64,000 nt of DNA from Desulfobacteraceae bacterium (GTDB taxonomy: Bacteria; Desulfobacterota; Desulfobacteria; Desulfobacterales; JALSRD01), in the NCBI GenBank assembly GCA_027061725.1, contig JAMOVG010000027.1, forward strand, positions 2,416 through 66,415, written 5' to 3'. Position numbers and translations under genes: made by a program. Numbering within the stretch: position 1 is the first letter of the stretch; every line of letters starts with the position of its first letter. Below the pieces are notes generated by a model that was not told the origin of the DNA, did not search any database, and was given only the letters and a program-made list of their open reading frames with translations. Shown here in pieces: positions 27,721-64,000 of this stretch.

Positions 27721-29598
27721 CTATACCTCCACGGATGAAAGCCCCAGAGCCTTGCGCTTGCCCTCGATGTGGCGCCGGATCAGCATGGCGGCCTTTTCCG
27801 GGTCGGGCTCCACGGCGAAGGTCGCGCCCACCACGTCGTTGAGACCTTCGGTCAGCAGGCCGACCACGTTGGCGCTGCCGGTCACCGGCGGCATGGGGCC
27901 CAGCACGGTGTAGACGCCCGAGGCCACGAAGTAGGTGCCGATGGTGGCGGCCTTTTCCGAGTACCACTCGGGGGCCGCCCCGGCCAGGGGCAGGTCGCTG
28001 ATGTCCACGCCCAGGGCGTCGGCCAGGGCCGAGGCCAGCACCAGAATGCGCACGTTGTCCACGCAGGAGCCCAGGTGCAGCACCGGCGGAATGCCCAAGG
28101 CGCCGCAGACTTCCTTCAGGCCCGGGCCGGCCATCTCGATGGCCTCGGGGACCTTCAGGCCCGCTTTGGCCGTAGCCACCGACACGCAGCCCGTGTCCAC
28201 CACCAGGATGTCGTTCTCGATGAGCCGCCTGGAGAGGGTCACGTGGCCGTAGTCGTGCTTGATCTTGGGGTTGTTGCAGCCCACGATACCGACGGCGCCG
28301 CGGATCTTGCCGGCCTTGATGGCGTCGAGCAGCGGCTCGGGCGTGCCGCCCAGGGCGCCCACGATGGCCTCCACCGAGAACCCGCCCACGGCGTTGACCG
28401 GCTGGACCGGGATGTAGACCTGCTTGCGTCGGGTGAAGTTCTCCACGGCCTCTCTGACCAACTCGGCGGCCATCTTCTCGGCATTGTCGGGGTGGAACTC
28501 GCGGTGCTCCATGCCCGGAAAACGCGCCTTGTCGCTGGTGCTGATCATGCGCGTGTGGTAGCAGCCGGCGATGGTGCCCAGCGACGGCATGATGCACTGG
28601 TAATCCACCAGCATCATCTCCACGGCGCCGGTGGAAAGCACCAGTTCGGTCATCAGGTGGTTGCCGGCCATGGGAATGCCGTGGCGCATGAGCAGCTCGT
28701 TGCCGGTGCAGCACACCCCGGCCAGGTTGATGCCGGCGGCGCCCTTTTCCCTGGCCAGGGCCAGCAGGTCGGGTGACTCGCAGGCCTTGAGGATCATCTC
28801 CGAGACCACCGGGTTGTGGCCGTGCACCACGATGTTGACCTGGTCCTCTCTGAGTACGCCCACGTTGACCGTGGTGGCTTTGGGCGACGGCACGCCGAAG
28901 AGGATGTCGGAAACCTCGGTGGCGATCATGGACCCGCCCCAGCCGTCGGACAGGGCGTTTCGCAGCCCCTGCAGCAGCAGGCTCTGCCAGCCGTTGTCGA
29001 CCCCCATGTGGGTGCGGTGCATCATCTCGGAGGTCTCGCGGTCGATGCCCCGCGGGGTGACGCCGATCTTTTCCCACAGCTGGCGGCGTTTTTCCGGCGC
29101 GCGGCTGAGCAGGGTCAGCGATTTGCGGCGCATGCCGTAGTCCTCCATCATGGCGTCGGCCACCTCGGCGGCGATGGCCAGCGTGTCCTTGCCGTCGGTT
29201 TCCACGCCGTACTCGGCGGCCACGCTCTTGAGCTTCTGCTCGTCGCGGATGCGGTAGCCCGGGGCCTTTCCGGCGGCCACGGCGGCCAGCACCTCCACCA
29301 GGTCGCGGCCGTGGTCCGAGTGGGAAGCCGCACCGGCGGCGATCATGCGGCACAGGTTGCGGGCCACGATGATGTCGGCGTCGGCGCCGCACACGCCCCG
29401 CTGGGGCCCTTCGCCGAAGGGGTCGATGCGGCAGGGGCCCATGATGCAGATACGGCAGCTCAGGCCGGTTTCACAGTAGCCGCACTGGGGCTGCTGGGCA
29501 TCGTGGCGCTGCCACACGGTTTCCACACCGTCCCGGCGGGTTTTCTCCAGCAGCAGCCGGGCATCTTCGGTAATGCTGATATTTTCAAATGTCGCCAT
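27721..29598 (-). CDS. cooS: Anaerobic Ni-Fe carbon monoxide dehydrogenase catalytic subunit
   Basis: N-terminal cluster Cys motifs are QPQCGYCETGLSCRICIMGPCRI and GVCGA. HGHNP, CCTGNE and HLGSCVDN are typical of CooS. Confidence 0.9.
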   Translation of the reverse strand: MATFENISITEDARLLLEKTRRDGVETVWQRHDAQQPQCGYCETGLSCRICIMGPCRIDPFGEGPQRGVCGADADIIVARNLCRMIAAGAASHSDHGRDLVEVLAAVAAGKAPGYRIRDEQKLKSVAAEYGVETDGKDTLAIAAEVADAMMEDYGMRRKSLTLLSRAPEKRRQLWEKIGVTPRGIDRETSEMMHRTHMGVDNGWQSLLLQGLRNALSDGWGGSMIATEVSDILFGVPSPKATTVNVGVLREDQVNIVVHGHNPVVSEMILKACESPDLLALAREKGAAGINLAGVCCTGNELLMRHGIPMAGNHLMTELVLSTGAVEMMLVDYQCIMPSLGTIAGCYHTRMISTSDKARFPGMEHREFHPDNAEKMAAELVREAVENFTRRKQVYIPVQPVNAVGGFSVEAIVGALGGTPEPLLDAIKAGKIRGAVGIVGCNNPKIKHDYGHVTLSRRLIENDILVVDTGCVSVATAKAGLKVPEAIEMAGPGLKEVCGALGIPPVLHLGSCVDNVRILVLASALADALGVDISDLPLAGAAPEWYSEKAATIGTYFVASGVYTVLGPMPPVTGSANVVGLLTEGLNDVVGATFAVEPDPEKAAMLIRRHIEGKRKALGLSSVEV

Positions 29599-37846: not shown

Positions 37847-38626
37847 ATGACTCCTCCGACCGTTGATACCGCATTGCTGCAGCGGGCCGCCGCCGATATC
37901 GCCCGCTCCCGCCGCACCCTGGCCCTCACCGGGGCCGGCATCTCGGTGGAGAGCGGCATTCCCCCTTTTCGCGGAAAGGGCGGCTTGTGGGAAAAAATCG
38001 ACCCCATGAAGTACGCCCACATCGACGCCCTGGTCAAGGACCCCGAAACCGTCTGGCGGGTCCTGATCAAGGATATGAAAGAAGTACTGGACCGCGCCCG
38101 GCCCAACGACGCTCACAGGGGGTTGGCGCGCCTGGAGGAAATGGGGCTGCTCCAAACGGTCATCACCCAGAACATCGACGGGCTGCACCAGGCGGCCGGC
38201 AGCCGTGACGTGATCGAGTTTCATGGCAGCTTCGCGCGGCAGCGCTGCATGGACTGCGGGCGCAAAATGGCCACGGCAGACGTGGAGCTGCATGAACTGC
38301 CCCCGCGCTGCAGATGCGGCGGCGTGCTGCGGCCCGAGGCGATTTTCTTCGGCGAACTCATCCCACCCGAGCACCTGCTGCGATCCCAGCAACTGGCGGC
38401 CGCCTGCGACACCATGCTGGTCATCGGCACATCGGCCGTGGTACAGCCTTTCGCCAGCCTGCCGGTCATCGCTCGCGGCGCAGGCGCCACGGTCATCGAG
38501 ATCAATCCGGAAAAAACGCCCCTGACCGGAGAGATCAGCGACTACCTGCTGGCCGGAAAGGCCGGGCAGGTCATGCGCGCTCTGGTCGACATCATCGAAA
38601 AGGAGCTTCGCGAAACACGCCCATGA
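37847..38626 (+). CDS. cobB: NAD-dependent protein deacylase (Sir2/CobB family)
   Basis: GAGISVESGIPPFRG, TQNIDGLH and the Zn ribbon CMDCG...CRCGG are present, as is GTSAVVQP. I trimmed the start to ATG 37847. Confidence 0.85.
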   Translation: MTPPTVDTALLQRAAADIARSRRTLALTGAGISVESGIPPFRGKGGLWEKIDPMKYAHIDALVKDPETVWRVLIKDMKEVLDRARPNDAHRGLARLEEMGLLQTVITQNIDGLHQAAGSRDVIEFHGSFARQRCMDCGRKMATADVELHELPPRCRCGGVLRPEAIFFGELIPPEHLLRSQQLAAACDTMLVIGTSAVVQPFASLPVIARGAGATVIEINPEKTPLTGEISDYLLAGKAGQVMRALVDIIEKELRETRP

Positions 38627-40182
38627 CCCCCACCCGTACACCCGCCGACGGCTGCCTGCACAACGTCGAGGTCCCGCAGCCCAGCCTGGAGAACAACACC
38701 GCCGACGCCGAACGCCTGGCCGAGGCCCTTGAAAAGGTGCTGGACGGAGGCCCCGTGCACCTGGGCCACGCCGTAGTGCGCCGACTGCCGTCCATGCTGC
38801 GCGCCGCCGATCACCGCCTGCGTTGTGCCGTGATCCGATACGGCGGGCACTGGCAGGTGTGCGGCATCCGCCCGGCCGACGACGCGGCCCCCATGACGGG
38901 CCTGGCCGTGGACCTGGGCACCACCCGGGTGGTGCTGCGCCTGGTGGACCTGGCCGGCGGCGAAACGCTGGCCGAGACGGCCTTCGACAACCCCCAGATC
39001 GAAATCGGGCCCGACATCCTGACGCGCATCCACCACGCCGAAAAACCCGGCGGACTGGAACAACTGCAGGAATGCGTCATCACGGGGATTGGGAATGCGC
39101 TGGAGGCGCTGCTGACCGACAGCGGGCGAAGCCCGCAGGACGTTTTCCTGACCGCCGTGGCCGGCAACACCGCCATGACCCACCTTTTTTTGGGCCTGGA
39201 ACCGCGCTGGATCATCCGCGAGCCCTACATCCCGGCGGTCAACCGGCCCGAGCTGCTAACCCCCCGGGATGTCGGCATCCCCATGAACGACATGGGGCGC
39301 ATCTTCGTCTTCCCCAACATCGGCAGCTACTTCGGCGGCGACCTGATCGCCGGCATCCTGTTTTCCGGCATGGACACCCGCGAACAGCCGGCTATCCTGG
39401 TGGACGTCGGCACCAATGCCGAGGTGGTGCTGGGCAACCGGGACTGGCTGATGGCCTGCGCCGGCGCCGCCGGACCGGCCCTGGAAAGCGGCGTTGCCGG
39501 CATCGGCATGATGGCGGCGCCGGGGGTCATCGAACGGGTGACCATTCACCCGCCGGACCGCCGCTTCGAACTGCGCACCATCGGGGGACTCCCGCCGGTG
39601 GGTATCTGCGGTTCGGGGGTCATCGACCTGGCGGCGCACCTGTTCATCTCCGGGATGATCGACATCCGGGGACGCTTCGTCCCCGAGAAATGCGGCGACC
39701 GGCTGGTAAAGGACGAAAACGGCATCGCGCAGCTGGTGCTGGTGCCGGCCGAAAAGTCGGGCACGGGGCGGGACCTGACCATCGGGCAGCCCGACCTGGA
39801 CAGCCTGATGCGCTCCAAGGCGGCCATGTACACCATTCTGGAGACCATCACCGACAGCGTGGGCCTGTCCATGGAAGAACTGGACAAGTTTTTCGTGGCC
39901 GGCACCTTCGGATCACTGATCGACCCGGTGTCGGCCATCCGCATCGGCATGCTGCCGGACCTGCCCCTGGAGCGCTACGAGGCGATTGGCAACAGTTCCC
40001 TGGGCGGGGCCACGCAAATCCTTACCGACTGCAGCGCCACCGGGCGCGTCGAAGCCATCCGCCAGCGCATCACCTACATGGAGCTCAACGTCAACCAGGA
40101 CTTCATGAACCGCTTCAGCGCCGCCAAGTTCCTGCCCCATACCCACCCCGAACGCTTTCCCTCGGTGAAGGTCTGGGGGTAG
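38623..40182 (+). CDS. ASKHA (DUF4445)-domain protein related to corrinoid reductive activators, lacking the N-terminal ferredoxin domain
   Basis: ATG 38623 overlaps the cobB stop (ATGA). It has the ASKHA phosphate-1-like motif GLAVDLGTTRVVL, then VAGNTAMTHLFLG, DVGTNAEVVLG, AGPALE and ICGSGVIDL. Confidence 0.7.
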   Translation: MTPTRTPADGCLHNVEVPQPSLENNTADAERLAEALEKVLDGGPVHLGHAVVRRLPSMLRAADHRLRCAVIRYGGHWQVCGIRPADDAAPMTGLAVDLGTTRVVLRLVDLAGGETLAETAFDNPQIEIGPDILTRIHHAEKPGGLEQLQECVITGIGNALEALLTDSGRSPQDVFLTAVAGNTAMTHLFLGLEPRWIIREPYIPAVNRPELLTPRDVGIPMNDMGRIFVFPNIGSYFGGDLIAGILFSGMDTREQPAILVDVGTNAEVVLGNRDWLMACAGAAGPALESGVAGIGMMAAPGVIERVTIHPPDRRFELRTIGGLPPVGICGSGVIDLAAHLFISGMIDIRGRFVPEKCGDRLVKDENGIAQLVLVPAEKSGTGRDLTIGQPDLDSLMRSKAAMYTILETITDSVGLSMEELDKFFVAGTFGSLIDPVSAIRIGMLPDLPLERYEAIGNSSLGGATQILTDCSATGRVEAIRQRITYMELNVNQDFMNRFSAAKFLPHTHPERFPSVKVWG

Positions 40183-44583: not shown

Positions 44584-47034
44584 ATGGTTTTTCGCCGTTC
44601 TATGAGCCTGCAGACCAAATTCATCCTGGGCCTGGCGGTGTTCGCCCTCTCGCTGGGGCTTTTTTTCGGCGGCACGCTCTTTTTCCACCTGCGCAGCGTC
44701 ATGCTCCAGGAAGTCAGCGACAAGTCCAACCTGATCCTGGCCCAGGCCGATGCCGTGCAGGACTACGTCCGGCGCGACCTGCGCCCTGCCATGTTCGAAG
44801 TGCTGCCCCCCGACCGCTTCATCATCTCGGCAATGTCGTCCTCCTACATTTCACGCCACATCATGGAGCGCCTCAACGTCAAGGACACGCACTACTACTA
44901 TCGCCGCGTGGCGCTCAACGCACGCAACCCTGAATCCATCCCCACTTCCTTCGAGCGGGGAATCATCAGCCAGTTCCGCATCAACCACGCTCTCAAACGC
45001 TGGGAGGGCGACGTCACCATCCGCGGTGAAAAGTACCACCTCACCGCCCGTCCGGTGGTCTACGAGCAAAGCTGCATGCGCTGCCACGGGGAGCCGGAAA
45101 ACGCACCCACAGAACTGCTCACGCGCTACGGGCACGAGCGCGGCTTCGGCTACCCCGTCGGCGAAGTCAGCGGCCTGGTGGTCGCCGGTTTCCCGGTGCG
45201 CCACACCATCAGCCAGCTCAAGGACATCACTTTCGGCTACCTGGTGATGTACCTCATCGCCGTGGTGCTGTTTTTCGCCATGGTCAGCGTCTATTTCAAC
45301 AAGCTGGTGGTTCACAACCTTCACAACCTGACGTCCATCTTCCGGCGCCATTTCTCGGGGCCCGAGGAGCGCAGCATCATCGAGCGCCTGGGCAGCCACG
45401 ACGAAATCAGCGGCCTGGTGGGCGGCATGGAAGAGCTGGCGGGGCACCTGAACCGGACCAAGAAGGAGCTGGAGAAATACGCCCTCAACCTGGAGGAAAT
45501 GGTCGTCGAGCGCACGCTGGAGCTGCAGCAGGAAGTACTTCGGCACCGGTCGGACGTCAACCTCTTCGTCAACCTCTTGCAGGGCCTCAACCAGAGCGGC
45601 AGCCGGCCGGAAATGGTGGCCCACGCCGTCGAGCAAATCGGGCGGCGCTTCTCCGCCGAACGGGTGGTCTACTACTGCACGGTGGTTTCCCACCAGGTGG
45701 TAACCTGGCCGGAAGAGGAGGCCTGCGAGGACATTCCTGCCTTCTGGCAGCAGTTGATGAAGGATGACGACGTGCGCATCGAACCGTGCGCGGCATACGT
45801 GCCGGTGAAATCCCAGGACTGCGCCTGGGGCCTGTTGGGAATCCACTGGCCCGAGGGGAAAAAGCCTGACAAAATAACGAAGGAAGTAATGCTGGCGCTG
45901 GGCCAGCAGCTGGGCATCGCGCTGGAGAATATCCACGCCATCAACAACCTGACACACCAGAAGGACATGCTGCAGTCGGTGTTCGAAGGCATCTCCAATC
46001 CGCTCATGCTGCTCGACGCCGGCGGCGGAATTCTGATGGCCAACAAGTGGGCCGATGTGCTGATCGAAAAGGGCGCTTCCGGTGGACAGCTACGCCGCGC
46101 GCTGAAAGAAACGCTGGGACTGGACAAGGAGGGGATCATCCGGCGCATCCTTGACAATGGCACCCCCTGGGAGCAAAGCCTGCAGCTGGTGGACGGGCGA
46201 TCTTTCTGGACCAGCATCTACCCCATCGCCATCTACCGGCCCGAACCGGACTGCGTGGTGCTCTATGCCCGTGAAAATACGCGCGAAAAGCGCATGCTGG
46301 CCCGTCTGCAACTCGCCGAGAAGCTCAGTGCCGTGGGCCAGCTGGCGGCCGGACTGGCCCACGAAATCAACAACCCGCTGGGCGTTATCCAGTGCTATAC
46401 GGACATCCTGATGGCCGACACGGCCGACGAACAGACACGCAGCGACCTGGAAGTCATCGCCCGGCACACCCGCCAGGCCCAGGGGATCGTGCAGAACCTG
46501 CTGAACTTTGCACGCCCCAAGGCCTCGCTAGACGCCGCCTCCAGCCTCAACGCGGTCATCACCAACATCGCCGACGTCTTCCGGCTCCAGGCGGCCGGCA
46601 AATCCGCCCGGCTGGAACTGGACCTGTGCGGGGGCCTGCCCGACGTCCAGGGGGACGCCGCTTCGCTTGAACAGATCCTGACCAACCTGTGGCTCAACGC
46701 CTTCGACGCCGTCCCCGCCGGCAGCGGGCGTATCCGTATCACGACAGGCCTCGTAAAGGGCTCCGCTGAGGTGCTGCTGCAGGTCGCCGACAACGGCCCC
46801 GGCATTCCCGAGGAGCACCTGGAGAGCATTTTCGATCCCTTTTTCACCACCAAGGACGTGGGCCGCGGGTCCGGACTGGGCCTGGCCGTGGTGTACGGCC
46901 TGACCGGAGAACTGGGCGCCCGCATCGAGGTCGAGAACCGCGGTGGAGCCGTCTTCAGTATCTATCTGCCCACGACGCGAAAACAGCGCCAGGAGAAGAG
47001 CCGTGCAGACAAATGCGTCCATACTGATCGTTGA
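44584..47034 (+). CDS. Sensor histidine kinase with N-terminal heme-c-binding DUF3365-like sensor, HAMP, GAF/PAS, HisKA and HATPase domains
   Basis: GAAGGAGGA lies upstream of ATG 44584. The extracytoplasmic region between two TM helices carries a CMRCH (CXXCH) motif at 45073-45087. The H-box is LAHEINNPLG and the G boxes are DNGPGI and GSGLGLAVVYG. Confidence 0.85.
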   Translation: MVFRRSMSLQTKFILGLAVFALSLGLFFGGTLFFHLRSVMLQEVSDKSNLILAQADAVQDYVRRDLRPAMFEVLPPDRFIISAMSSSYISRHIMERLNVKDTHYYYRRVALNARNPESIPTSFERGIISQFRINHALKRWEGDVTIRGEKYHLTARPVVYEQSCMRCHGEPENAPTELLTRYGHERGFGYPVGEVSGLVVAGFPVRHTISQLKDITFGYLVMYLIAVVLFFAMVSVYFNKLVVHNLHNLTSIFRRHFSGPEERSIIERLGSHDEISGLVGGMEELAGHLNRTKKELEKYALNLEEMVVERTLELQQEVLRHRSDVNLFVNLLQGLNQSGSRPEMVAHAVEQIGRRFSAERVVYYCTVVSHQVVTWPEEEACEDIPAFWQQLMKDDDVRIEPCAAYVPVKSQDCAWGLLGIHWPEGKKPDKITKEVMLALGQQLGIALENIHAINNLTHQKDMLQSVFEGISNPLMLLDAGGGILMANKWADVLIEKGASGGQLRRALKETLGLDKEGIIRRILDNGTPWEQSLQLVDGRSFWTSIYPIAIYRPEPDCVVLYARENTREKRMLARLQLAEKLSAVGQLAAGLAHEINNPLGVIQCYTDILMADTADEQTRSDLEVIARHTRQAQGIVQNLLNFARPKASLDAASSLNAVITNIADVFRLQAAGKSARLELDLCGGLPDVQGDAASLEQILTNLWLNAFDAVPAGSGRIRITTGLVKGSAEVLLQVADNGPGIPEEHLESIFDPFFTTKDVGRGSGLGLAVVYGLTGELGARIEVENRGGAVFSIYLPTTRKQRQEKSRADKCVHTDR

Positions 47035-57388: not shown

Positions 57389-58535
57389 ATTCGATCTCAT
57401 CATCGTGGGCGCCGGTTCGGTGGGCGTACCCACGGCCCTGGCCTGCGCCGAGGCGGGCCTCAAGGCCCTGGTGCTGGACAGGCGCCCCTCGCCGGGACAG
57501 GGCGAGAACAAGCACGCCATCGGCGGCATCCGCGCCACGCACTCCGACCCGGCCAAGATTCTGGTCTGCCACCGCTCGCTGGAGATCTTCTCCACTTGGC
57601 AGGACCTGCACGGCGACGATATCGAGTGGCAGCGGGGCGGGTATGTGTTTCCCGTCTACCGGGAAGAAGAGGAAAGGCTGCTCAAGACCTTCCTGCCGGA
57701 ACAGAAAAAGTTCGGCCTCAACATCGACTTCGTCGACCCGCAGACCATCGCCTCCGTGGTGCCCGGCATCAACCCCGACGGGCTGCGGGGCGGGACGGTC
57801 TCTCCCGATGACGGTTCGGCCTCACCGCTGCTGGCCGTCAACGCCTTCTACCGCAGGGCCGTCCGGCTGGGCGTGGAATTCCGGTTCAACGTCCAGGTGC
57901 AGCAGATCCTCCGGGAAAAGGGCGCCGTCCAGGGAGTACGGACCTCTGCGGGCCGCTTTTCCGCGCCGGTAGTGGTCGATGCCGCCGGTGCCGACTCCCG
58001 GGAGCTCTCCGCCGCCCTGGGCTGCGACATCGCCGTGACCCCCGAATCCCACGAGGCCGGCATCAGCGAACCGGTGCAGATGTTCTGCCCCGCCATGGTG
58101 GTCGACCTGCGGCCGGCGCCGGGATCGCGCAACTACTATTTCTACCAGAACCGGCACGGCCAGGTGGTTTTCTGCATCACGCCGGAGCCGCCCCTGGTGG
58201 GCCACGACTACCGCGAGACGTCCGGTTTCCTGCCCCAGGTCTGCGCACGCATGGTGGACCTCATGCCGCGGCTGAAAAACCTGCGGGTGCGCCGGGTGTG
58301 GCGCGGGCTTTACCCCATGACAGCCGACGGCGTCCCGCTGGTGGGCTGGAACCGGGACGCTTCCGGGCTGCTGCACGCCGTGGGCATGTGCGGTCAGGGG
58401 TTCATGCTTGGCCCCGGCCTCGGTGAACTGCTGGCGCGCATGATCACAGGCGCCTCCACCGCCGACGACCGCGTTGTACTGGCGGGTTTTTCCCTTTACC
58501 GCGACCTCACTTGTGGCATGGAGGCCCTGAAGTAG
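57381..58535 (+). CDS. FAD-dependent oxidoreductase (DAO family; sarcosine oxidase beta / proline dehydrogenase beta-like)
   Basis: The motif FDLIIVGAGSVGVPTALACAEAG is present. Its start overlaps the end of the upstream gene. Confidence 0.8.
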   Translation: MNKFDLIIVGAGSVGVPTALACAEAGLKALVLDRRPSPGQGENKHAIGGIRATHSDPAKILVCHRSLEIFSTWQDLHGDDIEWQRGGYVFPVYREEEERLLKTFLPEQKKFGLNIDFVDPQTIASVVPGINPDGLRGGTVSPDDGSASPLLAVNAFYRRAVRLGVEFRFNVQVQQILREKGAVQGVRTSAGRFSAPVVVDAAGADSRELSAALGCDIAVTPESHEAGISEPVQMFCPAMVVDLRPAPGSRNYYFYQNRHGQVVFCITPEPPLVGHDYRETSGFLPQVCARMVDLMPRLKNLRVRRVWRGLYPMTADGVPLVGWNRDASGLLHAVGMCGQGFMLGPGLGELLARMITGASTADDRVVLAGFSLYRDLTCGMEALK

Positions 58536-58549
58536 ATTCCGATTTTCCC

Positions 58550-58578
58550 TTGACACAACGTGGCACTTTGCATACATT
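58550..58578 (+). promoter_or_regulatory. Sigma-70-like promoter candidate (TTGACA-17 nt-TACATT) upstream of the Sec-peptide gene
   Basis: TTGACA is at 58550-58555 and TACATT at 58573-58578. It sits in the intergenic gap after the stop at 58535 and would give a leader of about 200 nt. Confidence 0.45.
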
Positions 58579-58783
58579 ATATTTGAAGCGAAGTTTTCCG
58601 ACCAGCGAGATTTCACAATGCCCCGTGCGGGCGGTCCCCTAATTTCTCTGTTTTCGGTGCTTTTTCAAAAGTTCCCCAACGAATGATGCCAAACACACTG
58701 GCCGCAGTGTCTCAGGGCAGCCGTCTCCACGCGGATCCTGAAAGGCCGTTTCCACCCCTAACCCTTTGGAACAGGAGGGCACA

Positions 58784-59137
58784 ATGGACAGCAGGGATAT
58801 CAAGAAATACCTTGCCGGATTGAGCATTGCCGGATTGATCAGCCTGGGCGGCTTCACGCTGCCGGGCGCGATGGCCGGCAGCAGCTGAGGTGCACAACCT
58901 AGTGCAGGTAGCACTAAAGTTGAAAAGCCCGCATCGGGCAGCAGCTGAGGCGGCCAAGGCAGCGGTGCCGTGAGCACCGAAGAGACCACGAAGGAAGCCG
59001 AGGAAGCCGCCGAAGAAGTCCAGAAAGAGTCCGGGAAAAGCGGCTGAGGGTCCAGCACCGACAGTGCAGTTGGCACTGACACGAAAAAAGAAGAAGACAA
59101 CAAGAAAGAATCCGGGAAAAGCGGCTGAGGCGGATGA
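58784..59137 (+). CDS. Putative multi-selenocysteine RiPP precursor peptide (SbtA-like), 117 codons with four in-frame UGA
   Basis: AGGAGG at 58773-58778 is followed 5 nt later by ATG 58784. In-frame TGA codons occur at 58886, 58946, 59045 and 59126, all in an S/G-S/G-U-G context. No TAA or TAG occurs in frame until 59285. A SECIS-like hairpin follows each UGA. The N-terminus is signal/leader-like (MDSRDIKKYLAGLSIAGLISLGGFTLPGAMA). A radical SAM/SPASM gene lies immediately downstream. Confidence 0.6.
58900..58916 (+). promoter_or_regulatory. SECIS-like hairpin 1 (UAGUGC-AGGUA-GCACUA)
   Basis: It is a 17-nt hairpin starting exactly 11 nt after UGA-1. It can be extended by CAAC/GUUG (58894-58924). 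Confidence 0.5.
58963..58979 (+). promoter_or_regulatory. SECIS-like hairpin 2 (CGGUGC-CGUGA-GCACCG)
   Basis: It is a 17-nt hairpin starting 14 nt after UGA-2. It shares the GUGC-N5-GCAC core of hairpins 1 and 3. Confidence 0.5.
59022..59130 (+). repeat. 28-nt direct repeat pair (1 mismatch) carrying UGA-3 and UGA-4, period 81 nt
   Basis: AGAAAGA[G/A]TCCGGGAAAAGCGGCTGAGG occurs at 59022-59049 and 59103-59130. A separate 14-nt exact pair GGCAGCAGCTGAGG at 58877-58890 and 58937-58950 carries UGA-1 and UGA-2 with a period of 60 nt. Confidence 0.9.
59062..59078 (+). promoter_or_regulatory. SECIS-like hairpin 3 (CAGUGC-AGUUG-GCACUG)
   Basis: It is a 17-nt perfect hairpin starting 14 nt after UGA-3. 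Confidence 0.5.
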
Positions 59138-59142
59138 TGTTA

Positions 59143-59161
59143 CCGGCGCCGGCGGCGCCGG
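59143..59161 (+). promoter_or_regulatory. GC hairpin 4 (CCGGCGCC-GGC-GGCGCCGG) after UGA-4
   Basis: It has an 8-bp perfect stem and starts 14 nt after UGA-4. Its core sequence differs from hairpins 1-3. Confidence 0.4.
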
Positions 59162-59239
59162 AAAAACACACTCAGCAAAACGGCCGGTTTGCCAGATTCC
59201 GCTGCGGTCGACGGATTCCCGTTCGGATGATGTTTGCCA

Positions 59240-59272
59240 GGAGCCGGCGTCCCCCCGGGGGATCCCGGCTCC
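59240..59272 (+). terminator. Strong hairpin followed by CCUGUUUU, between the precursor and maturase genes (possible leaky terminator)
   Basis: GGAGCCGG...CCGGCTCC forms the outer stem and TCCCC/GGGGA the inner stem. TGTTTT follows and the maturase ATG lies 41 nt downstream. Confidence 0.4.
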
Positions 59273-59312
59273 CCTGTTTTGCAATAACGCCACTCGCCTA
59301 CCAGAGGCCCTC

Positions 59313-60887
59313 ATGAAACCGCTGCCCGATGAGATCCGGTCCGCCTACCCGGTCTGCAGCCGGCTGCTGGCCGAAGAACCGCTGCCCCCGGACGGGCCGG
59401 CACCCACCGTCGAAGACCTGCCCCGAAGGCTCGCCGCCACGCCTGCGGCACTGAAACGCCACCCCTACCTGGCCGACCTGGCCCGCATCGAACAGGCCAT
59501 TCACAAACTGAGCACGGACCCGCCGGGCATCCCCTCCCGCGTGGACCGGCTGCGTCTCAACCCCGCGCTGGTGCTGCTGCCGGTGTCCTGGCAGCGCCTG
59601 CCGGAACGCCTCCAGGACGATCGGGCCGCCCCGGCACCCGTGCCAAACGGCTTCGTGCTGGTCTGGAAAGCGCCCGGCTCAGGGCGCGTTCGCGCCGCCA
59701 CGGCCGACGGGCACGACCTGCTGGCGCTGAAAATCGTCAGCGAGGCAATCGCCCCCCGGCAGGCGGCCGAGGATGGCGGTGTGTCCCTGGGTACCATCGA
59801 CAACATTCTTTACGCCGCCAGCCAGCGCGGCCTGCTGCTGGCACCCCCCTCGCGCATCGTACGCCCACCGGCGTTCGGCCGGGAAGCCGTCGACGGCGAC
59901 CAATTCCGCGTCGCCAGGTGTTTCACCCTCCAGTGGCACATTACCCAGGCCTGCGACCTGCACTGCCGCCACTGCTACGACCGCAGCGACCGCCAGCCCC
60001 TGCCGCTGGTAGAGGCCTTGCGGGTGCTGGACGATCTCTACGATTTCTGCCAGCGAATGCACGTTTACGGCCAGGTCACCTTCACCGGTGGAAACCCCTT
60101 GCTCTACCCCCATTTTGACGAGGTCTACCGCCAGAGCGCGGAGCGCGGCTTCCTGACCGCCGTGCTGGGCAACCCCATGCCACGCCGGCGCATCGAAACC
60201 CTGCTACGCATCCAGGATCTCGAGTTCTACCAGGTCAGCCTGGAGGGCCTGGCCGAACACAACGACTACATTCGCGGCCCCGGCCATTTTCAGCGCACCA
60301 TGGCTTTCCTGGACGTGCTGCGTGAGCTGAACGTCAGCACCATGGTCATGCTGACCCTGACCGATGCCAACATGGGCCAGGTACTGCCGCTGGCCGAACG
60401 GCTGCGCGGGCGCACCGGCGTGTTCACCTTCAACCGGCTCTCGCCCGTGGGCGAAGGCGCCGACCTGTCGCCGGCCGGCACCGGGCGCTACCGCGCCTTC
60501 CTGGAAGACTACCTGCGGGCCGCGCGCAACAATCCCGCCATGCGCCTCAAGGACAACCTCTTCAACATCCTGCTGCACGAGAGGGGGGAGCCCTTTTTCG
60601 GCGGCTGCGCCGGCTTTGGCTGCGGGGCGGCCTTCAACTTCGTCTCCCTGTTGCCCGACGGCGAAGTGCACGCCTGCCGCAAACTGCCCTCGCTGATCGG
60701 CAACATCCGGGAGCGTTCGCTCTACGACATCTACCGCGACGCACCGGCCCGGCGATTCCGCGCCGGCAGCAAGGCCTGCCGCGGCTGCGCCATCCGGCCG
60801 GTGTGCGGCGGGTGCCTGGCCGTGAGCCACGGCAGCGGGCTGAACATCTTCAGGGAACGCGACCCTTACTGCTTCATGGAAAAATAG
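59313..60887 (+). CDS. Radical SAM/SPASM-domain peptide maturase with roughly 200-aa N-terminal extension (SbtM-like)
   Basis: I trimmed the start to ATG 59313. The CX3CX2C motif CDLHCRHC is at 59952-59975 and TFTGGNPLL is present. The C-terminal SPASM-type Cys motifs are GGCAGFGCGA, HACRKL and CRGCAIRPVCGGC. Confidence 0.8.
   Translation: MKPLPDEIRSAYPVCSRLLAEEPLPPDGPAPTVEDLPRRLAATPAALKRHPYLADLARIEQAIHKLSTDPPGIPSRVDRLRLNPALVLLPVSWQRLPERLQDDRAAPAPVPNGFVLVWKAPGSGRVRAATADGHDLLALKIVSEAIAPRQAAEDGGVSLGTIDNILYAASQRGLLLAPPSRIVRPPAFGREAVDGDQFRVARCFTLQWHITQACDLHCRHCYDRSDRQPLPLVEALRVLDDLYDFCQRMHVYGQVTFTGGNPLLYPHFDEVYRQSAERGFLTAVLGNPMPRRRIETLLRIQDLEFYQVSLEGLAEHNDYIRGPGHFQRTMAFLDVLRELNVSTMVMLTLTDANMGQVLPLAERLRGRTGVFTFNRLSPVGEGADLSPAGTGRYRAFLEDYLRAARNNPAMRLKDNLFNILLHERGEPFFGGCAGFGCGAAFNFVSLLPDGEVHACRKLPSLIGNIRERSLYDIYRDAPARRFRAGSKACRGCAIRPVCGGCLAVSHGSGLNIFRERDPYCFMEK

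Positions 60888-61001: not shown

Positions 61002-64000
<2,999 letters not shown>

Follow-up and report, generated by a model that had tools for sequence, protein, structure and literature searches.

The SbtA/SbtM system comprises a precursor of a ribosomally synthesized and post-translationally modified peptide (RiPP), SbtA, and its radical SAM maturase, SbtM. As relayed by two later papers (PMC9204691; PMC11002830), it is credited to Haft and Basu (2011) and Lewis et al. (2021), and Haft described sbtM as lying beside a peptide gene whose stop codon is directly trailed by a selenocysteine insertion sequence (SECIS). Here, a member of this system is described in a stretch of 64,000 nucleotides from a Desulfobacteraceae bacterium (contig JAMOVG010000027.1, assembly GCA_027061725.1; the whole stretch is hereafter called the window). 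It contains an sbtA precursor-peptide gene with four in-frame UGA codons, each of them followed by its own SECIS-like hairpin, and SbtA is very probably produced by reading these codons through as selenocysteine (Sec).

According to biochemistry carried out on another member of the family, SbtM turns Gly-Cys/Sec into a thio(seleno)oxazole (PMC9204691; PMC11002830). Newer annotations mention "at least two SeCys residues" in SbtA, together with a GGUG motif (PMC9204691; PMC11002830). In turn, a 2026 review describes the TIGR04081 family with the motif SGUG and 2 Sec, and states that prokaryotic selenoproteins contain one Sec and, rarely, 2-3 (PMC13188914).

The window locus shares with the published system (TIGR04081/PF27804 and TIGR04082) the following features: (i) a leader recognized by the same hidden Markov model (HMM); (ii) an adjacent SbtM; (iii) [G/S][G/S]-U-[G/S] motifs; (iv) a SECIS directly after each UGA; and (v) a Desulfobacteria/Geobacter-type lineage. 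It differs by its four Sec codons and four hairpins, as compared with "at least two" or 2 Sec in the literature, and by its leader, which lacks the lipobox Cys of many homologues. The locus is an unusually selenium-rich member of the published system, and its mechanism is not new. What goes beyond the accessible literature is modest, namely the scale (four Sec here; 2-6 per gene in the family) and the presence of one hairpin per UGA. Members with multiple Sec may be more fully recorded in Haft and Basu, in Lewis et al. or in RefSeq annotation.

Gene layout and identity of the locus

The sbtA gene begins at ATG 58784, behind a Shine-Dalgarno sequence (AGGAGG, 58774-58779), and UGA-1 to UGA-4 share the reading frame of this ATG in translation (Table 1). 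Read-through, with each UGA written as U, would yield MDSRDIKKYLAGLSIAGLISLGGFTLPGAMAGSS-U-GAQPSAGSTKVEKPASGSS-U-GGQGSGAVSTEETTKEAEEAAEEVQKESGKSG-U-GSSTDSAVGTDTKKEEDNKKESGKSG-U-GG-stop. Residues 1-27 match TIGR04081, the NCBIfam model for the SbtA thio(seleno)oxazole RiPP precursor, with 43.4 bits (cutoff 30.5), and SbtM, whose gene starts 176 nt 3' of sbtA, matches TIGR04082 with 682.5 bits (cutoff 350). As is characteristic of the SbtA family, the predicted Sec residues stand in Gly/Ser-rich motifs (GSSUG, GSSUG, KSGUG and KSGUGG), and like contexts are found in 72 homologues. In every testable respect, the locus has the properties that define membership of the SbtA/SbtM system and of the generic bacterial SECIS (bSECIS). 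By analogy with the published biochemistry, SbtM would be expected to convert the window peptide to a thio(seleno)oxazole. An earlier sequence-only reading of this DNA had listed the four UGA codons, their hairpins and the spacings between them (11, 14, 14 and 14 nt), and both its coordinates and its sequences are exact.

Table 1. Features of the sbtA-sbtM locus, with positions counted from the first nucleotide of the window.
Feature	Position	Strand	Remarks
sbtA precursor-peptide ORF	58784..59137	+	117 codons including 4 predicted Sec-UGA; terminates at the fifth UGA
Leader, signal-peptide-like, residues 1-27	58784..58864	+	TIGR04081 match
UGA-1, predicted Sec, GSS-U-G	58886..58888	+	in frame
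SECIS-1 (predicted)	58895..58922	+	core UAGUGC-AGGUA-GCACUA (58900-58916), lower helix CAAC/GUUG; core 11 nt after UGA-1
UGA-2, predicted Sec, GSS-U-G	58946..58948	+	in frame
SECIS-2 (predicted), CGGUGC-CGUGA-GCACCG	58963..58979	+	14 nt after UGA-2
UGA-3, predicted Sec, KSG-U-G	59045..59047	+	in frame
SECIS-3 (predicted), CAGUGC-AGUUG-GCACUG	59062..59078	+	14 nt after UGA-3
UGA-4, predicted Sec, KSG-U-GG	59126..59128	+	in frame; ESGKSG-U-G module, same as UGA-3
UGA-5, likely true stop	59135..59137	+	next nucleotide U; two codons past UGA-4, 5 nt before hairpin 4
SECIS-4 (predicted), CCGGCGCC-GGC-GGCGCCGG	59143..59161	+	3' UTR; 14 nt after UGA-4
sbtM, radical SAM/SPASM thio(seleno)oxazole maturase	59313..60887	+	TIGR04082, Radical_SAM and SPASM domains
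Terminator-/attenuator-like GC-rich hairpin with U-run	59240..59281	+	between sbtA and sbtM
Promoter candidate, sigma-70-like, TTGACA-17-TACATT	58550..58578	+	consensus match only

The SbtA family is systematically mis-annotated, in that gene callers stop at the first UGA. On the identical public contig, the gene call for sbtA goes no further than UGA-1 and yields a 34-aa product with a PF27804 (GSU1558_StbA-like) match. Positions 637-741 of locus L018 are identical to positions 58784-58888 of the window, and sbtA is there cut at the first UGA by automatic calling. A protein database search with the full read-through peptide, with Sec written as Cys, gave no match, and short low-complexity genes truncated at UGA are poorly covered in that database.

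The 34-residue gene call and the lack of a database match for the full peptide are what would be seen if UGA-1 were a stop codon, so that only the leader was made and the rest was untranslated or a decayed gene. Such an explanation is hardly credible, given that the reading frame is held across indels in all relatives: two of the inter-UGA distances are 99 and 81 nt in the window, 75 and 93 nt in L002, 123 and 81 nt in L001, and 87 and 84 nt in L020, i.e., all of them multiples of 3 despite the indels. Furthermore, the [GS][GS]-U-[GS] contexts are conserved, homologues with only Cys or with a mixture of Sec and Cys read through the equivalent positions, and the Gly-Cys/Sec motif on which SbtM acts, according to another laboratory's biochemistry (PMC9204691), lies 3' of the first UGA. 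Regarding read-through as Sec, which is the reading preferred here, UGA is not a general sense codon in the window, since pyruvate:ferredoxin oxidoreductase (PFOR; 975 codons), SbtM (524 codons) and the sarcosine-oxidase-like (sox-like) genes have no in-frame UGA.

Hairpins downstream of the UGA codons

Stem-loops alone are weak evidence, because ~17% of all TGA trinucleotides of the window (63% GC) are followed, at the right distance, by some generic perfect hairpin with a stem of 6 bp or longer. The pattern GTGC-N5-GCAC occurs 4 times in the 64 kb (~2 expected); three of these four occurrences are inside a 180-nt stretch of sbtA, each of them 13-16 nt past an in-frame UGA.

The bSECISearch model of Zhang and Gladyshev, as set out in a figure legend (PMC13188914, Fig. 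2), comprises the following constraints: (i) an apical loop of 3-9 nt and an upper stem of 4-16 bp; (ii) a G within the first two nucleotides of the loop, with G or U usually next; (iii) a UGA-to-loop distance of 16-37 nt; and (iv) a minimum free energy (MFE) of -7.5 kcal/mol or lower. Hairpins 1 to 4 have loops of 5, 5, 5 and 3 nt and stems of 6, 6, 6 and 8 bp, all inside these limits. In each of their loops (AGGUA, CGUGA, AGUUG and GGC), the first or second nucleotide is a G, with G or U next to it, and the loops stand 17, 20, 20 and 22 nt from the UGA. The 40-nt segments containing UGA and hairpin have MFE values of -10.2, -12.4, -10.4 and -17.4 kcal/mol, respectively; hairpin 1 as a bare 17-mer reaches only -6.4 kcal/mol, and hairpin 4 reaches -16.1 kcal/mol. 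Compared with the bSECIS consensus, the window hairpins are very short and have a family-specific core, GUGC-AGGUA-GCAC.

The sequence-only reading had proposed that a covariance model be built from homologous loci. Such a model, trained solely on 17 UGA-downstream hairpins from seven distant loci, was run on both strands of the window, and its top four matches are the four hairpins: SECIS-1 with 29.0 bits (E 5e-6), SECIS-3 with 22.1, SECIS-2 with 21.2 and, marginally, SECIS-4 with 17.5. It also recovers a terminal hairpin in L003 on which it had not been trained. An ungapped re-implementation of the model gives an identical ranking; its background rate, counting scores from 10 bits upwards, is 2.6e-5 per position. 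The best background match (44766-44790, minus strand, 16.7 bits) was set aside as noise, as it has no suitably placed UGA and is antisense to a kinase gene. A search of the whole window against Rfam at the gathering threshold gave no match, and relaxing it to E values of up to 10 for positions 58500-59400 gave chance-level matches only.

The likeness of hairpin 1 to the SECIS of Escherichia coli fdhF, to which the sequence-only reading had drawn attention, is of a generic kind. Both share a 17-nt apical minihelix, a GGU loop and the GCAGGU string, and the loop G/U of hairpin 1 is likewise located ~20-21 nt past the UGA. By contrast, the bulged U of the fdhF element, whose sequence was confirmed across 5,413 E. 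coli genomes, is absent from all four window hairpins. A family-level kinship is ruled out, in that the sbtA-derived covariance model gives no match at the fdhF element (L099, 1501-1545).

Homologous loci were collected by scanning genomes with SbtM (17 loci) and, then, metagenomes (80 more). The sbtA genes were located with the leader HMM, upstream of sbtM except in a few loci, and the survey consists of 72 non-redundant sbtA genes; site counts come from the analysis of motif-context UGAs (context [GSATN][GSAT]-U-[GSTAND]) and generic hairpins. Loci L013 and L015 were excluded from the hairpin analysis. In both of them, which are Candidatus Brocadiia metagenome-assembled genomes (MAGs) with ~50% SbtM identity, no recognizable sbtA was found in the retrieved flanks on either side of sbtM, and a response-regulator gene comes next.

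A bSECIS-like hairpin follows 172 of the 187 in-frame UGAs in the 72 genes (92%). The figure is only 18% for Cys codons in an identical context (7 of 39), and 20% for background TGA trinucleotides (310 of 1,572). The sequence-specific model is passed by 78% of the 168 UGA sites outside the training loci, as compared with 5% of the Cys sites, and the mean folding z in fixed windows is -2.5 at UGA sites vs -1.1 at Cys sites (Mann-Whitney p = 2e-6). The statement that every one of the UGAs comes with a SECIS-like hairpin of its own is supported by the bSECIS constraints, by recovery with the covariance model, by covariation (see below) and by this difference between UGA and Cys codons. In SbtA proteins with only Cys (L011, 1429-1668; L045, 747-970), repeated TSCSG(K/G) units occur without SECIS-type hairpins, and Cys and Sec are mixed at equivalent positions in L009, L067 and L073.

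At every sampled UGA with a hairpin of its own, the register is identical, with the consensus GGUGC-AGGUA-GCACC and the loop centre 19-24 nt past the UGA (across the family, mostly 20 or 23-24 nt). In an alignment of 29 sites, the 6-bp helix is essentially always paired. All six pairs vary, five of them by two-sided compensatory change; the outer pair, for instance, is C-G, G-C, U-A or U-G, the next one G-C or A-U, and another one U-A or C-G. The covariation score is 0.452 vs 0.188 in shuffled alignments, none of which (0 of 500) scores as high; in slid registers, it is 0.16 at most. The compensatory-like stem variation that had been pointed out among the hairpins of this one gene is seen across the aligned family sites as well. 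Among close relatives, SECIS-2 takes the compensatory form CGGCGC-CGUGA-GCGCCG in L001, and the SECIS-3 hairpin is identical in L001, L002 and L020.

Hairpins 1-3 are located within coding sequence, and their most conserved core (GGU GCA GGU AGC ACN) encodes G-A-G-S-T, which recurs across the family. It could then be argued that the hairpins are the by-product of a repeated peptide motif (xAGST / AVST / AVGT) with no function at the RNA level. Such an origin is very improbable: behind the terminal UGA, a like hairpin occurs outside the coding sequence and in other frames (e.g., UAA-N4-CAGUGCAGGUAGCACUG); base pairs are kept where the amino acid changes (GGUGCC..AGCACC to GGCGCC..AGCGCC, T to A); and sites where Sec has given way to Cys lose both the motif and the hairpin (18% vs 92%). 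With the hairpins acting as RNA elements, the peptide motif S/G-A-G/V-S/G-T is present after each Sec because hairpins 1-3 are translated.

The sequence-only reading had taken four tandem SECIS elements for an unusual architecture, a view that the survey does not sustain, since several UGAs, each with a hairpin, are the norm in the SbtA family (2-6 UGAs per gene). Motif-context UGAs number 2 in 27 genes, 3 in 30, 4 in 9 and 5 in 1, and there are six in-frame UGAs in L091/L093; at least four UGAs are present in about 1/7 of the genes. The acidic and lysine-rich linkers between the modules vary and carry the indels. In tandem UGAs located 9-18 nt apart (L007, 2802/2811; L005, 934/952; L083, 1097; L091, 1124/1136), the two codons share one downstream hairpin, and the upstream UGA of each pair has none of its own. 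Within the window gene, exact DNA repeats span the UGAs: GGCAGCAGCTGAGG is found at 58877 and 58937 (58877-58890 / 58937-58950), and TCCGGGAAAAGCGGCTGAGG at 59031 and 59111 (59031-59050 / 59111-59130). These repeats suggest that the Sec modules arose by internal (tandem) duplication. As for gene order, two copies of sbtA (565 and 1065) precede a single sbtM in L027, and sbtA is 3' of sbtM in L070 (2697), L081 (4057) and L086 (3978).

UGA-4, UGA-5 and the terminal hairpin

UGA-4 is most likely a Sec codon, with UGA-5 as the likely true stop, since UGA-5 is only 5 nt before hairpin 4. The sequence-only reading had considered that UGA-4 might itself be the stop, and it had missed the fifth in-frame UGA. 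Hairpin 4 would then be a SECIS in the 3' untranslated region (UTR), like the terminal hairpins of most homologues. Bacterial SECIS elements are generally placed in coding regions. Unlike this textbook placement, the fourth element of the window is wholly in the 3' UTR, and it can have a longer, GC-only stem because no coding constraint applies there.

Of 69 homologues, 60 have a stop codon (UAA 27, UGA 23, UAG 18) 1-5 codons past their last motif-context UGA. The terminal hairpins of these homologues are non-coding, start after a spacing of 9-17 nt, at or past the stop codon, and have a G[G/U]N loop; their stems differ widely (CAGUGC/GCACUG, CAUGCA/UGCAUG, GCACGCG/CGCGUGC, UAGCGCA/UGCGCUA and CCGGCGCC/GGCGCCGG). 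Such non-coding terminal hairpins are the best single argument for action at the RNA level over a by-product of the peptide. In the clade of the window, the peptide ends in U-[GS]-[GS]-stop; the window and L002 use UGA for this stop, L001 and L020 use UAA.

Hairpin 4 is indeed different from the other three, as had been remarked, in being a GC-rich triloop away from the consensus, but it is not an outlier: its GC-rich form with a GGC loop is a recurring variant, found at terminal and internal sites of homologues. A hairpin of the type CGGCGCC-GGC-GGCGCCG follows an internal in-frame UGA in L025, and L020 and L091 have hairpins related to it (GGCGCC-GGGA-GCGCC).

These peculiarities bear on whether UGA-4 might be the real stop, with a peptide of three Sec and a hairpin 4 that stabilizes the mRNA or is of terminator type. 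This is unlikely, even if hairpin 4 departs from the GUGC-N5-GCAC consensus, is all G-C, stands outside the open reading frame and scores 17.5 bits in the covariance model against 16.7 for the best background match. UGA-4 is part of an ESGKSG-U-G module like that of UGA-3, and the exact 14-nt spacing from UGA-4 to hairpin 4 is conserved in L001 and L002 over a diverged spacer sequence. In addition, the 60 of 69 homologues mentioned above have a second stop 1-5 codons past the last motif-context UGA, together with a hairpin that shows a G[G/U] loop and the spacing of a SECIS, and the L025 hairpin stands after a UGA that is internal. As an intrinsic terminator, hairpin 4 is ruled out: it is followed by AAAAACAC, with no U-tract, and the terminator scan gives no call there. 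A U-run does accompany a different hairpin of terminator-like form, 80 nt farther downstream.

A Sec codon this close to the stop, as proposed for UGA-4, has counterparts in the C-terminal-Sec families 'UXX-star', 'KCU-star' and 'GUXX-star' (PMC13188914), in which Sec is 1-5 residues from the stop; with so short a distance, the SECIS of these families must be at or past the stop codon. Those families mostly have a single or double Sec, in contrast to the terminal site of the window, which is the last of a tandem series.

Proposed decoding and surroundings of the locus

The four predicted SECIS elements would bind SelB and direct Sec insertion, a proposal derived from sequence comparison. Each module would consist of G/S-G/S-UGA, a spacer of 11-14 nt and a hairpin of 6-8 bp with a G[G/U] loop. 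With a UGA in the A site, the next hairpin would be just outside the mRNA entry channel, where it could recruit SelB-GTP-Sec-tRNA(Sec). Sec would be inserted in place of termination, and the ribosome would melt the hairpin and repeat the process at the following module, with hairpin 4 serving the last Sec, two codons ahead of UGA-5. Finally, SbtM would oxidize each [G/S]-Sec unit to a selenooxazole, as suggested by published biochemistry on the other family member.

Several points weigh against this interpretation: (i) the 40-nt segments show no significant gain in stability over their dinucleotide shuffles (z -0.1 to -1.6); (ii) hairpin 4 is only marginally above background in the covariance model (17.5 vs 16.7 bits); (iii) the 29-site alignment took the best hairpin per UGA, which inflates the percentage of paired positions; (iv) no tRNA gene, tRNA-Sec included, and no selA, selB or selD gene is present in the 64-kb window, and the organism is taken to be Sec-competent on account of its affinity with Desulfobacteraceae; and (v) four serial Sec insertions would be inefficient if the efficiency per site were like that of E. 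coli, so that much of the product may be truncated. With respect to the first point, the greater stability over shuffles expected of the hairpins is found for the minimal hairpins (z -2.6 to -3.3) and not for the 40-nt segments, and fixed windows from +7 to +40 give z values of -3.3, -1.7, -2.3 and -3.7 at sites 1-4. Thermodynamics alone is insufficient for a SECIS claim, and the comparative evidence is the strong part. As to the third point, selecting the best hairpin inflates neither the compensatory pattern, nor the contrast between UGA and Cys codons, nor the ranking by the covariance model.

For the family, the survey adds (i) that 2-6 predicted Sec codons, each with a hairpin, are routine; (ii) that close tandem UGAs share one hairpin; (iii) that the peptide motif after Sec is a translation of the SECIS; and (iv) that the 3' UTR is the usual place of the last SECIS. 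The ~170 short covarying hairpins can be used directly to train a Desulfobacteria-type SECIS model and to annotate these RiPP precursors correctly. Besides, such compact 17-nt modules could aid the engineering of peptides with multiple Sec.

The SbtA leader, in which a hydrophobic core comes after a KK n-region, resembles a signal for secretion, and the SbtA product may be exported or lipid-anchored. Among the leaders of the 72 homologues, a lipobox-like ...G-C is seen in 29 and an A-x-A site in 26; the window leader has an A-M-A|G site and no lipobox Cys. Eukaryotic selenoprotein P, with which there is no homology, also has many in-frame UGAs and an N-terminal signal-like sequence; nevertheless, its two 3'-UTR SECIS elements act at a distance for all its UGAs, whereas each UGA of the window would need an adjacent hairpin. 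It is conceivable, if improbable, that SbtA peptides are exported in a selenoprotein-P-like role, with a leader of signal or lipoprotein type, 4-6 Sec per ~100 residues and a core much of which is dictated by the tandem SECIS rather than by peptide function. If this were so, serial and imperfect decoding could let product length and selenium load report the cellular selenium supply, and this effect, combined with that of the conserved attenuator-like element ahead of sbtM, could tune the expression of the maturase.

This intergenic hairpin (-29.2 kcal/mol, z -3.3) ends in a UGUUUUG tail and is conserved in L001 and L002; within it, the terminator scan makes a call (hairpin at ~59257-59274). 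As a terminator or attenuator, it could set the ratio of precursor to maturase. Upstream of sbtA, the promoter candidate matches 10 of 12 consensus positions (0.1 expected in shuffles) and would leave a 5' UTR of ~200 nt, with no Rfam match between 58550 and 58783.

The neighbouring genes, i.e., the sarcosine-oxidase-like flavoprotein genes upstream and the PFOR gene downstream (61074-63998, plus strand; recognized by eye from its translation), seem unrelated to sbtA and sbtM. Elsewhere in the window, there are genes for the catalytic subunit of an anaerobic CO dehydrogenase (27724-29598, minus strand) and for an AcsV-like corrinoid activation protein (38314-40179, plus strand). Together with PFOR, these genes point to an anaerobe with Wood-Ljungdahl-type metabolism, which fits Desulfobacteraceae. 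The nearest relatives are Desulfobacteraceae MAGs, with SbtM identities of 79-88%.

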